Source: a bacterium
GTDB taxonomy: Bacteria; Electryoneota; JAOADG01
Direction of reading: 5' to 3'
Assembly: GCA_030247525.1 (NCBI GenBank)
Contig: JAOTSC010000003.1
Coordinates: 1-58,811, forward strand
DNA: 58,811 nt
The translations under genes and the position numbers were made by a program. Under the pieces are notes generated by a model, which did no database searches, was not told the DNA's origin, and saw only the letters and a list, made by a program, of their open reading frames with translations. Positions 46,328-54,303 of this stretch are shown one piece after another; within the stretch, counting starts at the first letter, position 1, and each line of letters begins with the position of its first letter.

Positions 46328-46340
46328 GGGCGGGTGTAAA

Positions 46341-46405
46341 CCGTAGGACAGACACTCCTGTCTGTCCACAATGATTCCGATGGACAAGAATGTCCATCGT
46401 ACGGG
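46341..46405. repeat. REP doublet (GACAGACA family plus GGACAAGAATG family)
   Basis: ccgtaggacagacactcctgtctgtccac (46341-46369) and ccgatggacaagaatgtccatcgtacggg (46377-46405). Confidence 0.9.
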
Positions 46406-46420
46406 ACATCGAAGAGAAAA

Positions 46421-46741
46421 ATGAATCCACGGATTTTGCAAATCGCTGGGGAATTGAAGAGGCGGCTGGAACCGCTGTACGGCGAGCGGTTGCAAAAGGT
46501 CGTGGTCTTCGGTTCCTATGTGCGTGGCGAAGAGACTGACGAGTCGGATTTAGACGTCGCGATTGTGTTGGATCCAAAATATGACGATTTAACTGAGTGG
46601 AATTTAGCGGGATCGCTCTTTGTCGAAATCGATTTAGCGTTTGATGTGGTCGTCGATACGCATATAATTTCGCTCGAAGAATACAATGACCGGGATTATG
46701 CGATACTTCGCGCTATCCATAGCGAAGGGGTGACGGTGTGA
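46421..46741 (+). CDS. Minimal nucleotidyltransferase (MNT) antitoxin of a HEPN-MNT toxin-antitoxin pair
   Basis: GSYVRGEETDESDLDVAIV is the GSxxRGx(n)DxD NTase motif. Overlaps the downstream HEPN gene by 4 nt. Confidence 0.85.
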   Translation: MNPRILQIAGELKRRLEPLYGERLQKVVVFGSYVRGEETDESDLDVAIVLDPKYDDLTEWNLAGSLFVEIDLAFDVVVDTHIISLEEYNDRDYAILRAIHSEGVTV

Positions 46742-47118
46742 ACGAACTTGTAGCGTTGCACTTGAAGCGTGCCGAGCGATTTCTGGTCGAAGCGAATTTT
46801 ACTCTGACGAACGAGTTCTTCGATGCGGCGATCAACCGTTCCTACTATGCGATGTTTCATGCGGTAACCGCAGTACTGAAAACGGAAGATGTGGCGCGCA
46901 GTTCTCATGCCGGTGTGATTGCCGCATTTAATCAGTTCTTTGTCAAACCGGGTAAATTCACCGAGGTAGAAGGGCGTTGGCTCAAACACGGCTTTGAAAC
47001 GCGCAATAAGAACGATTATTGGCCGGCGCCGGAGAACAGTGAAGCGGAAGCGCTGCAATTATTTGAAGAAGCGAAGGCGTTTGTAGCGAAGTGTCGGGAG
47101 TATTGCGAAGGAGCGTAG
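46738..47118 (+). CDS. HEPN-domain toxin of the HEPN-MNT pair
   Basis: Helical protein with AINRSYYAMFHAVTAVL and ETRNKNDY motifs typical of PF05168-type HEPN domains. Confidence 0.85.
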   Translation: MNELVALHLKRAERFLVEANFTLTNEFFDAAINRSYYAMFHAVTAVLKTEDVARSSHAGVIAAFNQFFVKPGKFTEVEGRWLKHGFETRNKNDYWPAPENSEAEALQLFEEAKAFVAKCREYCEGA

Positions 47119-47244
47119 GGACGCAAATTATCGCATCCGAGACAATATCCGGGTTCGATGAACCCAACGCATTTCTAGCGTTGGTTCACAAACACCGATG
47201 ATTTTTCAATTCGTGTTTGTAATTGAACCCCTACAACGTTGCCC

Positions 47245-47324
47245 CGACATTCTTGTCGCGGAGTTGGAGGTTAGGCAATCTTGCCTGACTGAGGAAGAGC
47301 GACGGACAAGAATGCCCATCGTAC
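47245..47324. repeat. REP cluster; includes the left copy of the 26-nt direct repeat bracketing the TM-protein gene
   Basis: cgacattcttgtcg (47245-47258), ttggaggttaggcaatcttgcctgac (47264-47289) and cgacggacaagaatgcccatcgtac (47300-47324). Confidence 0.9.
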
Positions 47325-47424
47325 AGTAGTGGGACAGAAGGAAGCGGGAAAGTGGGAACGTAGCGACAAAGCTCCTGCTTTGTCATCGTCTTTGGAATTG
47401 TATTAACAACTGGAGGTGATACCA

Positions 47425-47820
47425 ATGTATTCTTCAGAACCAGATGACTGTTCTAAAGATGATCAACATCAGGATTTGATCGAGATAACTCCAGAACTAG
47501 TTAGGAAGGTGAGGATATTCAAATATTCTTTTTGGACTCTTAGAACGATTTTTCTATCATTTGCTATACTAATCATGTATTCGGGGTTTATCTTTGCGGG
47601 TTTTGTTTTTAAAATACCATTTATAGATAAAATCAAGGATGATACTTTGTTTATGTTTTTTTATTTTATTGCATCGGTAGTATTTGGTTTTGTCATGTTG
47701 AATCTTGTTTGTAAGGTTGGTGTTGTTGATAGATTATTTAATAAGATCGACAATAAATATGAATACTATAAAGAGCTGTTGTGCGTTTATAATTATGATA
47801 GAAAATCTCATAAGTGTTAG
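47425..47820 (+). CDS. Small AT-rich membrane protein, unknown function (two predicted TM helices)
   Basis: GGAGG lies 8 nt upstream of ATG 47425. Hydrophobic segments TIFLSFAILIMYSGFIFAGFVF and LFMFFYFIASVVFGFVMLNLV. No family recognised. Confidence 0.5.
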   Translation: MYSSEPDDCSKDDQHQDLIEITPELVRKVRIFKYSFWTLRTIFLSFAILIMYSGFIFAGFVFKIPFIDKIKDDTLFMFFYFIASVVFGFVMLNLVCKVGVVDRLFNKIDNKYEYYKELLCVYNYDRKSHKC

Positions 47821-52356: not shown

Positions 52357-52539
52357 GTGAAAGGTGTAGGGTGAAAGGTGTAGGGTGAAAGGTGTAGGGT
52401 GAAAGGTGTAGGGTGAAAGGTGTAGGGGCTGACCCTCTGGGTCGCCCGGTGATGGGTGATAGGTTTTGGGGATTGGATAGCGACAGGTCTTCAGACCTGT
52501 AAAAAAGAAAATAGCAATTCTGGAGAATTGCCAGTACCC
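52356..52539. repeat. 14-nt tandem array (ggtgaaaggtgtag x5) plus three REP hairpins. Contains the right bracket of the HicAB-DinB module and the left bracket of the nuclease-HicAB module
   Basis: Tandem array 52356-52425. gtaggggctgaccctctgggtcgccc (52422-52447), tagcgacaggtcttcagacctgt (52478-52500) and gcaattctggagaattgccagtaccc (52514-52539). Confidence 0.9.
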
Positions 52540-52708
52540 AATCCGAACAATGGCGCTATTGCGGGAAGCTTTTGTCGATAGCGATCTGCCGTTTCGGGTC
52601 GATGAGGTGGAAAAGAGAGAGTTGAACGCAAGTGAACAAACTCTGATAACCTTGTAGTAGTCGAGATAGGCTCGACAATCTAATTAATTAAAAACAAGGA
52701 GTAAAATC

Positions 52709-53549
52709 ATGATTATCGAACAAGCGTTTTTTGGATTACCGGAATTGTGTGCAAATAAGAGTAGTTTGAGCGAAGCATTTATCAGATCGTGTTTCAGTCA
52801 TAGTATTTTACAAGAATTAATTGCACGTGGAGTTCCTTATCCAATAACAAAAATTCAACACGAATATGTTTACGAAGAATTACAAAAAGGAAATAAATTC
52901 CATGCAGATTTGTGTTTGACGTTGAATGATGAGAAGTATGTAAATAGGATGTCTATATGGGGACAAAAAAAACAACAACATAATTGAAATGAAGCTTATT
53001 AGAAATTATGACAAAAAAGATGGTTCAGAAAACAAGCAAGGCGTAATAAACAATGGGTACTTGCTCGATTCATTATTGCGTCTATCTATCTTACCGAAAA
53101 TTGAAATTGCACAAAAAAACAGCGGTGAGTTGAAAAATAATTCAGTTGGAAGATATTTACTACATGTGTATTTAGGAGAACCTGATCAATTCTTAGCCTA
53201 TAAGGATCAAAAAGGTGATGAAAGATTATGGGTGAAGAATCTTATCGAAGGTGAACAGAACGTAGAACTAGAACCTGCACGTGAAAAGTCCGGACATCTT
53301 CTGGCGATATATTCTAAGTACGGAAATGTTGTTCTGTTGAAAATGTCGATTAGAAGTATCAAAATTAAATCATTTATGAAGAAAGGTATAACTTTTGTCT
53401 TAAGTAAGATAAATTCTTTTCAGCTGAAAACAAATGAAGGAATGTATAATGAAAATGAGTTTGGTTCTTTCGATCAATCGCAATACAGTGTTTTGAAAAA
53501 CGCAAGAAACCAGAGCTTGTTTAATGTTAAAAGTAATCAAAACACATGA
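52709..53549 (+). pseudogene. AT-rich PD-(D/E)xK-like putative nuclease split into two ORFs at an A8 homopolymer
   Basis: AAGGAG RBS before ATG 52709. ORF1 carries FHADLCLTL (candidate catalytic D). The ORF2 frame is open upstream of its ATG and reads IIEMKLI (candidate ExK). The frames differ by +1, and removing one A from the A8 run (52965-52972) fuses them into a protein of about 279 aa. Confidence 0.45.
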
Positions 53550-53743
53550 AAGTCCGTGAGATAATAAAACTAATAGAAAAAGACGGTTGGTACTTGGTGA
53601 CGACCAAAGGAAGTCATCGGCAATTCAAGCACCCTGAAAAACCGGGACGTGTGACAGTTCCGGGACACGTTGGAGAGGATATGCCGGAAGGCATTCGGAT
53701 TTCTATCTTGAATCAAGCCGGATTGCGGAAGAGAGGAAAGTAA
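53546..53743 (+). CDS. hicA: HicA toxin (YcfA-type mRNA interferase)
   Basis: MKVREIIKLIEKDGWYLVTTKGSHRQFKHPEKPGRVTVPGH is canonical HicA. ATGA overlap with the upstream ORF. Confidence 0.9.
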   Translation: MKVREIIKLIEKDGWYLVTTKGSHRQFKHPEKPGRVTVPGHVGEDMPEGIRISILNQAGLRKRGK

Positions 53744-53744
53744 T

Positions 53745-54020
53745 ATGCGGTACGAGTATGCTATCTTCATCGAACGGTCGAAAAGCCGGTATTGGGCTTC
53801 CGTACCCGATCTTCCGGGTTGTGTTTCCTGTGGAAAATCGTTAGAAGAATTGCAAAAAAATATCCAAGAAGCCATCGAATTTCATTTGGAAGGGATGGTC
53901 GAAGATGGATTACCAATCCCGAAACCGGTGACAAAAGCAAGTATGGTGGAAGTGGAGCGTCCGACCCGGCGAAAAGCAATACGTCGGATTACCAGGACGA
54001 CGGTACGCGGTCATGAGTAG
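53745..54020 (+). CDS. hicB: HicB antitoxin
   Basis: YAIFIERSKSRYWASVPDLPGCVSCGKSLEELQKNIQEAIEFHLEG is the HicB/UPF0150 domain. Starts 2 nt after the hicA stop. Confidence 0.85.
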   Translation: MRYEYAIFIERSKSRYWASVPDLPGCVSCGKSLEELQKNIQEAIEFHLEGMVEDGLPIPKPVTKASMVEVERPTRRKAIRRITRTTVRGHE

Positions 54021-54183
54021 AGGCGTATTGCAATACGCCCATCGTGTGACGGGCTTGGAAGCCCGTAACCACCCAAACGGGACGGGTAGCGACAGGTCTC
54101 CAGACCTGTAAAAAGAAAATGTGCAATTCGGGAGAATTGCCGGTACCCAAGTGAATTTGAGGGCGTATGCCATACGCCCCTAC
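54017..54183. repeat. REP cluster of five hairpins; contains the right bracket of the nuclease-HicAB module
   Basis: Hairpins at 54017-54040, 54051-54074, 54086-54109 (gtagcgacaggtctccagacctgt), 54123-54148 (gcaattcgggagaattgccggtaccc) and 54161-54183. Confidence 0.9.
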
Positions 54184-54303
54184 ACCGCGACAGGAATACG
54201 AACCCGGACAGATGATTCATCGGAGTTCGTGATTCTTCGCTGCTTCACATGCGAAGAATTGTCGCGGCCACAAAAGAATGTTTTGGAACAATAGGAAAAT
54301 GGA

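Follow-up and report, generated by a model that had tools for sequence, protein, structure and literature searches.

REP (repetitive extragenic palindromic) elements carrying a GTAG tag, the REP doublets called REPINs, and the REP-associated tyrosine transposases (RAYTs) are described from Pseudomonas, Enterobacteria, and Stenotrophomonas (PMC3733652, PMC3116915), where the GTAG REPs occur mostly 3' of open reading frames (ORFs) between co-directional genes and also flank RAYT genes (PMC3733652). Repeats of this kind surround two groups of small genes that interrupt the F1Fo ATP synthase (atp) operon in contig JAOTSC010000003.1, from an uncultured lineage of the Electryoneota; the stretch of 58,811 nt analyzed here is called the window. 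In Escherichia coli malEFG and similar operons, REPs and bacterial interspersed mosaic elements (BIMEs) located in the spacers tune mRNA stability.

The hairpins of the window share with the GTAG REP/REPIN-RAYT systems their G+C-rich stems of 8-9 bp with a GTAG/GTAC tag, their position 3' of ORFs between co-directional genes, the inverted doublets, the presence of a Y1_Tnp/RAYT gene between inverted cognate REPs, the coexistence of several REP families, and occasional REPs inside genes. In the window, 62 hairpins with a stem of at least 7 bp are found (60 by a shuffle-style count, against 15-24 in shuffles), and 26 of the 38 with a stem of at least 8 bp carry the tag. Moreover, doublets with outward tags lie at 46340-46402, 47264-47324, 52475-52541, 54084-54150, 8520-8586, and 41204-41264, several of them with an A-rich spacer. 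GTAG-tagged REPs and REPINs are defined by such tagged hairpins and outward doublets. On the other hand, the present system belongs to an uncultured host, shows a very high diversity of stem sequences per kb, has heptamer arrays at stop codons, and places a RAYT inside the atp operon of two relatives, whereas the RAYT of the window carries a stop codon; it represents a dense GTAG-REP/RAYT system outside the Proteobacteria-centered examples. As in malEFG, the hairpins would lie between cistrons of one transcript, in an orientation predicted not to terminate sense transcription; here, however, the spacers also hold whole genes.

The operon and its two islands are laid out as follows, as read from the ORF map, with Pfam labels taken from the orthologues in relatives:
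42818-43072, plus strand, atpZ
43047-43517, plus strand, atpI
43648-44601, plus strand, atpB
44903-45130, plus strand, atpE
45211-45705, plus strand, atpF
ending at 46327, plus strand, atpH
46328-48810, plus strand, island 1 at the H/A junction (2.5 kb)
48811-50319, plus strand, atpA
50406-51269, plus strand, atpG
51270-54303, plus strand, island 2 at the G/D junction (3.0 kb)
54304-55809, plus strand, atpD
55825-56229, plus strand, atpC

The ORF map and the composition profile confirm the order given by the original prediction, Z-I-B-E-F-H, A-G, and D-C, with inserts of 2.5 and 3.0 kb at the two junctions. In the part encoding Fo and delta (atpZ-I-B-E-F-H, 42818-46327), each spacer contains REP hairpins or heptamer arrays and none contains an extra gene.

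The explanation that best accounts for this locus, to which we assign a probability of about 0.65, is the combination of two known processes, namely the accretion of selfish or stress genes at two atp junctions and a genome-wide colonization by REPs and RAYTs. The locus is built from known kinds of element, and its anatomy, the dispersion of the repeat families, the comparison with relatives, the relics, and the co-orientation of the cargo are all directly observed. The picture that emerges is one of two long-lived hot spots where old cargo is shared between lineages, some of it has decayed, and each lineage has made gains of its own, and not of a shuffling cassette array. It resembles the gene-flux hot spots known between core genes in that two fixed positions beside highly conserved genes are occupied, the content ranges from empty to several kb between related lineages, and the cargo is rich in toxin-antitoxin, HEPN, and unknown genes of atypical GC content. 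The differences are that these hot spots interrupt an essential operon, at boundaries between the cistrons for a single enzyme complex, and that all the cargo is co-oriented with the operon.

A protein search with AtpG followed by contig look-ups yielded five lineages with 75-79% AtpG identity, the junctions of which hold the following:
L169, H/A empty, G/D empty
L170, H/A empty, G/D empty
L172/L173, H/A empty, G/D empty
L165, H/A with MNT-HEPN, G/D with DinB_2 and a 177-aa RAYT
L162, H/A with orf91, MNT-HEPN twice, and orf211, G/D with NTase_sub_bind plus Pol-beta NTase and a RAYT

The H/A and G/D junctions are therefore true variable sites, empty in three lineages and differently filled in two, as the original prediction had proposed to check. 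In the empty lineages, whose AtpG is ~76% identical to that of the window, the junctions are compact, with spacers of 29-125 nt, and the loci have a GC content of 38-40% and 0 (L169), 1 (L170), and 0 (L173) tagged hairpins. The AtpA, AtpG, and AtpD identities separate two groups, one made up of the window, L162, and L165 and the other of the three empty lineages. The MNT, HEPN, and DinB proteins of the window are homologous to their L162 and L165 counterparts (39-57% identity), the DinB_2 protein encoded at the same place in L165 being 50% identical to that of the window. Since MNT-HEPN and DinB are common to relatives at the same junctions, this part of the cargo looks inherited rather than shuffled. 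Scans of collections of genome and metagenome contigs with AtpG retrieved only relatives of at most 57% identity, nearly all with a compact atpHAGDC, and the nearest named relatives (57-59% AtpG identity) are metagenome-assembled genomes (MAGs) of Calditrichota, LCP-89, and Zixibacteria.

The clade with filled junctions (window, L162, and L165) has 48-49% GC and REPs, whereas the empty clade, at 38-40% GC, is practically devoid of tagged REPs. From this contrast, the presence of REPs and RAYTs, the shift in GC, and the invasion of the operon coincide.

The cargo of the two islands in the window consists of the following genes and relics:
46421-46741, plus strand, MNT nucleotidyltransferase (PF01909/PF18765, E about 1e-10)
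46738-47118, plus strand, HEPN protein (PF05168, E 2e-13), overlapping MNT by 4 nt
47416-47820, plus strand, TM134, a predicted membrane protein of about 28-35% GC with no family match
48038-48757, plus strand, orf255/239, an AT-rich solitary HEPN-domain protein with Rx4H (R207..H212) and an N-terminal helical extension
51357-51653, plus strand, hicA', a full-length pseudogene with one in-frame TGA at 51426
51637-51849, plus strand, hicB1 (PF15919)
51856-52356, plus strand, DinB_2 protein (PF12867)
52550-52657, plus strand, a previously unlisted relic of a Pol-beta/MNT nucleotidyltransferase gene, with 35 C-terminal codons left
52709-52987, plus strand, orf92, an AT-rich ORFan
52989-53549, plus strand, orf186, an AT-rich ORFan whose stop overlaps the start of hicA2
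53546-53743, plus strand, hicA2 (PF07927, 76 bits)
53745-54020, plus strand, hicB2 (PF15919, 58.5 bits)

This list bears out a cargo of mostly toxin-antitoxin or HEPN-type genes. Their description as visibly AT-rich holds for TM134, orf255, and orf92/orf186 (28-36% GC) and not for the rest, given that MNT-HEPN, hicB-DinB, and the second hicAB pair have a host-like 44-52% GC in the composition profile. The adjacent and overlapping MNT and HEPN genes have the arrangement of a type VII-like toxin-antitoxin pair and are predicted to form one; the window MNT matches the PADLOC model PDC-S09 with 87.7 bits, being the sole PADLOC match, and NCBIfam MntA with 39 bits, under its cut-off of 60. The hicA-then-hicB order is found in both pairs, the one at 53546-54020 intact and the first with a stop codon in hicA. 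This hicA' is not truncated; a truncation by a REP was considered and rejected, because its codons reveal nothing more than a nonsense mutation in a gene of full length. The MNT relic, which begins 9 nt 3' of the repeat doublet D described below, matches residues 44-78 of the intact Pol-beta NTase found at the same junction in L162 with 51% identity.

For the unknown genes of the islands, Pfam gives no match for TM134, orf255, orf92, and orf186, exact sequence look-up returns no record for TM134 and DinB, and NCBIfam and PHROGs add nothing. Word-indexed homologue searches also return nothing for orf255 or orf186, whereas a full HMMER search with orf255 recovers 786 related clusters. In 34 homologues of this family, R207 is invariant and H212 is present in at least 90%, with the Pfam domain HEPN (PF05168) in 15/34 and DUF4145 in 9/34. 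Moreover, an alignment-based AlphaFold2 model of orf255 (pLDDT, the predicted local distance difference test, of 93.9) has as top structural matches the HEPN proteins 1o3u, 2hsb, HepT, and AbiV, with weak E-values of 0.06-1 and target-normalized TM-scores of 0.59-0.72 (1o3u, 2hsb, and HepT) and about 0.4-0.5 (AbiV). Based on the motif, the family Pfam matches, the model, and the structural matches, orf255 is a HEPN protein with an N-terminal extension, in agreement with the label HEPN-like given to it at first. The label of nuclease given to orf92/orf186, on the other hand, finds no support, as no Pfam, PADLOC, NCBIfam, PHROG, or PDB match is obtained for either ORF, and none in Pfam or PDB for the fused sequence. 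The two ORFs, for which no relatives are detectable, probably derive from a single gene that is interrupted by an A8 run at their boundary (52966-52973), where a shift of 1 nt would give a fused 280-aa protein; the split is also present in the Logan contig L174.

All the cargo lies on the same strand as atp: 10/10 island genes in the window, 9/9 in L162, and 4/4 in L165. Also, terminator-like sites on the plus strand show no enrichment, no island candidate has more than 4 G-C pairs, and both D doublets are terminator-like on the antisense strand only. The co-orientation of the island genes and the absence of strong plus-strand terminator-like sites fit with co-transcription with atp.

Under the accretion and colonization reading, the atpH-atpA and atpG-atpD junctions would be long-lived accretion sites of this lineage for small selfish or stress genes (MNT-HEPN, HicAB, the solitary HEPN protein, and DinB_2, with RAYT in relatives). 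The first insertions would most likely have taken place in an ancestor shared by the lineages of the window, L162, and L165. A turnover would have followed, by duplication, as the two tandem MNT-HEPN pairs of L162 suggest, and by decay in the window, where hicA would have acquired its nonsense codon, an MNT gene would have been reduced to a 35-codon stub, and the junction RAYT would have been lost; the AT-rich foreign TM134, the HEPN protein, and orf92/186 would be fresh gains. Because atpAG and atpDC still need transcription, only co-oriented, terminator-free insertions would persist, and deletions would be risky because essential neighbors would be hit, which may favor retention of the cargo. 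In parallel, a GTAG-tagged REP/REPIN population, presumably mobilized by RAYTs, would have colonized almost every transcribed spacer of the genome, accompanied by G-rich heptamer arrays at stop codons, and the spacers made by the inserted genes would have been colonized too. The locus shows kilobases of selfish genes hosted by an essential and tightly co-regulated operon at two cistron boundaries over long evolution, the apparent conditions being co-orientation with the operon and absence of terminators. A literature search of limited coverage retrieved no description of an atp operon with HEPN or toxin-antitoxin genes in it.

The repeats associated with the islands are the following:
46340-46402, plus strand, REP doublet with outward tags, GTAG-GACAGACACTCCTGTCTGTCC plus CGATGGACAAGAATGTCCATCG-TAC, its second hairpin being the left family-A bracket
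47264-47324, plus strand, REP doublet of 26-mer B (47264-47289) and the family-A copy A' (47300-47324)
47896-47950, plus strand, family-Z REP in reverse orientation (47896-47923) beside the second 26-mer B (47925-47950)
51270-51370, plus strand, left bracket of pair 3, a G-rich heptamer array directly after the atpG stop and then a degenerate family-Z REP
52356-52448, plus strand, right bracket of pair 3, a (GGTGAAAGGTGTAG)x5 heptamer array from the DinB stop and then a family-Z REP
52475-52541, plus strand, REPIN-like doublet D, with an aTAG-hairpin, an A-rich spacer, and a hairpin-GTAC
54018-54184, plus strand, REP cluster with GTAG-AGGCGTATTGCAATACGCC (54018-54039), a hairpin (54049-54069), the doublet D' (54084-54150), and GGGCGTATGCCATACGCCC-CTAC (54159-54184)

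Four pairs of same-orientation copies were proposed to bracket the modules, and all four are present: family A at 46378-46402 and 47300-47324 (25 nt, 92% identity), 26-mer B at 47264-47289 and 47925-47950 (26 nt, 100%), pair 3 at 51320-51370 and 52398-52448 (51 nt, 86%), and D/D' at 52475-52541 and 54084-54150 (67 nt, 87%). In the chance test with shuffled sequence, no such pair appears (0 in shuffles). The families are nonetheless dispersed. Family A (GGACAAGAATGYCCATCGTAC) has 7 copies in the window, including one between atpB and atpE (44789) and four around the RAYT (~32.1-32.7 kb); family Z, a GTAGGGGnnGAC...GGGTCGCCC hairpin, has further copies at 6067, 8556, 41238, and 47896; the hairpin that opens doublet D has two more copies, at 8525 and 41204; and the heptamer motif GGTGAAAGGTGTAGGG has 22 matches at six loci.

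In order to compare the brackets with the remaining repeats, the window was cut into 41 spacers that were compared all against all, a shared repeat being a match of at least 30 bits. About 25 of the 41 spacers carry REP or heptamer families, atp spacers without cargo among them. Among these 25, the probability of sharing a repeat in the same orientation is 0.12 (36/300) and in inverted orientation 0.11, with no overall effect of distance. The original prediction proposed to ask whether the copies of a bracket resemble each other more than other family members; this fails for three of the four pairs (A, Z, and the first hairpin of D). In family A, 23/25 positions agree between the two bracket copies, and each of these shares 21-23/25 with the RAYT-flanking ones, the best value elsewhere being 23/25, for the 46378 copy. 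For family Z, the values are 23/28 within the pair versus 26/28 with the copies at 6067 and 47896, and for the first hairpin of D, 27/30 within the pair versus 27/30 with the copy at 8522. Moreover, the brackets of island 1 interleave (A..B A'..B') rather than nest one cassette each. The "brackets" are simply members of dispersed families located in neighboring spacers, which is a warning for genome scans, as in REP-saturated genomes any small gene looks bracketed by repeats of the same family.

The only recombinase-like gene around is a RAYT, as initially described, and in L162 and L165 one RAYT sits within the G/D junction itself. In the window, the gene is placed elsewhere:
32055-32561, minus strand, RAYT (Y1_Tnp) pseudogene, 25.5 bits on Y1_Tnp (cut-off 23), with the HVH motif

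It has an in-frame TAA stop at 32333 and lies between a znuA-like gene (32747-33733) and a znuC-like gene (31205-31972), co-oriented with both. It is flanked by inverted family-A REPs, at 32062-32082 on the minus strand versus 32602, 32657, and 32707 on the plus strand, the latter within a region of three tandem 55-nt units at 32590-32754, each with a family-A REP. The REPs flanking the RAYT and those bracketing MNT-HEPN thus belong to the same family. The junction RAYTs of L165 and L162 score 30.9 and 21.7 bits on Y1_Tnp (cut-off 23), are 50% identical, and are each flanked by GTAGGGGCGTATGGCAATACGCCC and its inverse, so that a RAYT between inverted cognate REPs is found in the window, L165, and L162. 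In the window, the outer hairpins at 54018-54039 and 54159-54184 match this RAYT-flanking inverted pair of L162 and L165, with no RAYT between them.

Two further observations concern these genes. The RAYT of the window, within the znu gene set, is a second case of insertion inside an operon. Also, at 7559-8312 in L162, just 5' of atpA, orf211 (no Pfam match) is flanked by an inverted pair of RAYT-cognate REPs, like the RAYT itself.

Several results weigh against the combination of accretion and colonization. Of the spacer pairs separated by less than 2 kb, 4/5 inside the islands share a direct repeat versus 0/22 outside, and all four near direct matches are the island brackets, with a binomial probability of ~1e-3 against the background of 0.12, a value calculated post hoc. 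Random colonization does not predict this excess of near pairs, which opens the possibility of local copying or REP-associated recombination in the islands. Within the 58.8 kb, 26-mer B (TTGGAGGTTAGGCAATCTTGCCTGAC) and the second hairpin of D are confined to their own bracket pairs. Also, the island proteins are 39-63% identical between relatives versus 77-92% for the Atp proteins, and this greater divergence could reflect horizontal replacement instead of vertical descent. The distribution among relatives would be produced by either an ancestral insertion or a loss in the empty clade, and the distant L083 likewise has a DinB_2-like gene at the G/D junction.

An alternative that we consider unlikely is REP-mediated gene capture, where REP/REPIN copies would be recombination substrates moving genes into and out of the junctions, by RecA-dependent or illegitimate recombination or by RAYT cleavage at GTAG hairpins. 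For example, a circle with one REP integrating at a chromosomal REP would leave direct flanking copies, and direct pairs are enriched among neighboring island spacers (4/5 vs 0/22 elsewhere). Moreover, the AT-rich segment of TM134 is flanked exactly by the identical 26-mers; the 67-nt doublet of 87% identity flanks the unit formed by the MNT stub, orf92/186, and hicAB, with homology stopping sharply at the doublet edges and the stub only 9 nt past D; and two relatives have a RAYT in the same junction, with orf211 of L162 between inverted REPs. Nevertheless, in three of the four pairs the two copies resemble distant family members just as much as each other, the brackets of island 1 interleave, and REPs of the same families are also present where no gene has been inserted, in atp spacers and at other places. 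Efficient homologous recombination usually needs repeats at least as long as, or longer than, the 25-67 nt of the present ones, which are at or below the usual length. In addition, the RAYT of the window is a pseudogene, and RAYTs are not known as movers of cargo genes (PMC3733652; general knowledge). Capture is then a minority possibility, and the only route that would make the locus truly novel: if the local enrichment of direct pairs reflects it, a new route of cassette mobility would be at hand. Its stronger version, in which REP/REPIN doublets are portable recombination sites through which short modules (toxin-antitoxin, HEPN, and ORFan genes) would enter and leave the transcribed spacers of essential operons, by means of the junction-resident RAYT or of host recombination, seems improbable; if true, it would be a cassette system built on REPs and not on attC and IntI. 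For island 1, an origin of the brackets by tandem duplication could be imagined from the A..B A'..B' order and the two MNT-HEPN pairs of L162. This stays a speculation, since a second MNT-HEPN relic is not found in 47119-47950.

The resemblance that had first been drawn, to an integron or a CALIN (cluster of attC sites lacking integron-integrases), whose modules would be cassettes with dedicated recombination sites moved by a recombinase encoded outside the window, has very little probability. The likeness is in the genes, which are small, co-oriented, mostly promoterless-looking (expression from an upstream promoter being plausible), and of toxin-antitoxin or unknown function, and in a content that differs between relatives, with empty sites included. 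Co-oriented cassettes that vary from relative to relative are indeed observed, but other systems than integrons can show them too. Pfam matches to an integrase or a tyrosine recombinase are absent from the scanned ORFs of the window, a set that does not comprise all the small ORFs, nor is such a domain present in the precomputed Pfam annotation of the 20-kb loci of relatives. The motif scan of 46201-54400 gives a single palindromic RYYYAAC...GTTRRRY pair, inside orf92 (52853-52927), which is within chance expectation (shuffle mean of 0.56, maximum 4), and no attC-like R''/R' site at gene boundaries; with Rfam, no match is obtained at gathering or E-value thresholds, and no tRNA is found. The lack of an integrase in the scanned ORFs, the attC match at chance level, and the absence of Rfam matches leave the integron/CALIN reading unsupported. 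Moreover, the delimiting repeats are generic, dispersed REPs that also occur in spacers where no gene is inserted, each spacer has several different hairpins, the brackets interleave, and the cargo is partly conserved in position across lineages, with MNT-HEPN and DinB fixed at given junctions.

An assembly chimera, in which short repeats would have mis-joined AT-rich segments into the operon during metagenome assembly, is hardly credible: despite the abrupt fall in GC to 28-36% in two segments, the repeats at the segment flanks, and the Logan contigs ending within repeats, independent Logan contigs (run SRR20819803) matching 48502-51349 and 52398-54112 of the window at 100% identity argue against it by linking orf255 to atpA and the flanking REPs to orf92-orf186-hicA-hicB. 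Moreover, orf186 ends within the first codons of hicA2, a gene of normal GC content, cargo is present at both junctions in relatives too, and large-k assemblers are not misled by repeats as short as 26-67 nt.

Small genes at atp junctions are also seen sporadically in distant taxa. The DinB_2-like gene of L083, at 11069-11560 between atpG and atpD, encodes a protein 27% identical to that of the window, and another DinB_2-like gene occupies the G/D gap of L093. In a Pyrinomonadaceae MAG (L059), hicB and hicA lie between atpA and atpG (9554-9995), and the ORFs in the G/D gap of L014 and L106 resemble by eye a four-helix "IVS" protein and a GxxExxY protein.

With respect to the other repeats of the window, the G-rich heptamer arrays at 42746-42814, 45131-45200, 45701-45776, 50319-50373, 40991-41033, and 8406-8491 begin at or just past the stops of plus-strand genes and are of the types GGTGAAA/GGTGTAG, GGGAACA/GGGGACA, and GGGGTTC/GGAATTC. 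In ordinary atp spacers, each heptamer array is followed by a C-rich complementary array, and therefore long imperfect hairpins could form between cistrons. Within the 120 nt 5' of atpD (54185-54290), nested inverted repeats are seen by eye, with CCGCGACA...TGTCGCGG around ATTCTTCGC...GCGAAGAAT, which may be a structured leader or another type of repeat. Finally, a plus-strand ORF of 1094 aa at 4951-8235, with DUF7948 and beta-propeller repeats, runs without a stop across two blocks (about 5200-5590 and 5860-6600) made of REP hairpins and heptamer arrays, so that its DUF7948 match is cut into three stretches and roughly 380 of its stop-free codons are of repeat origin.

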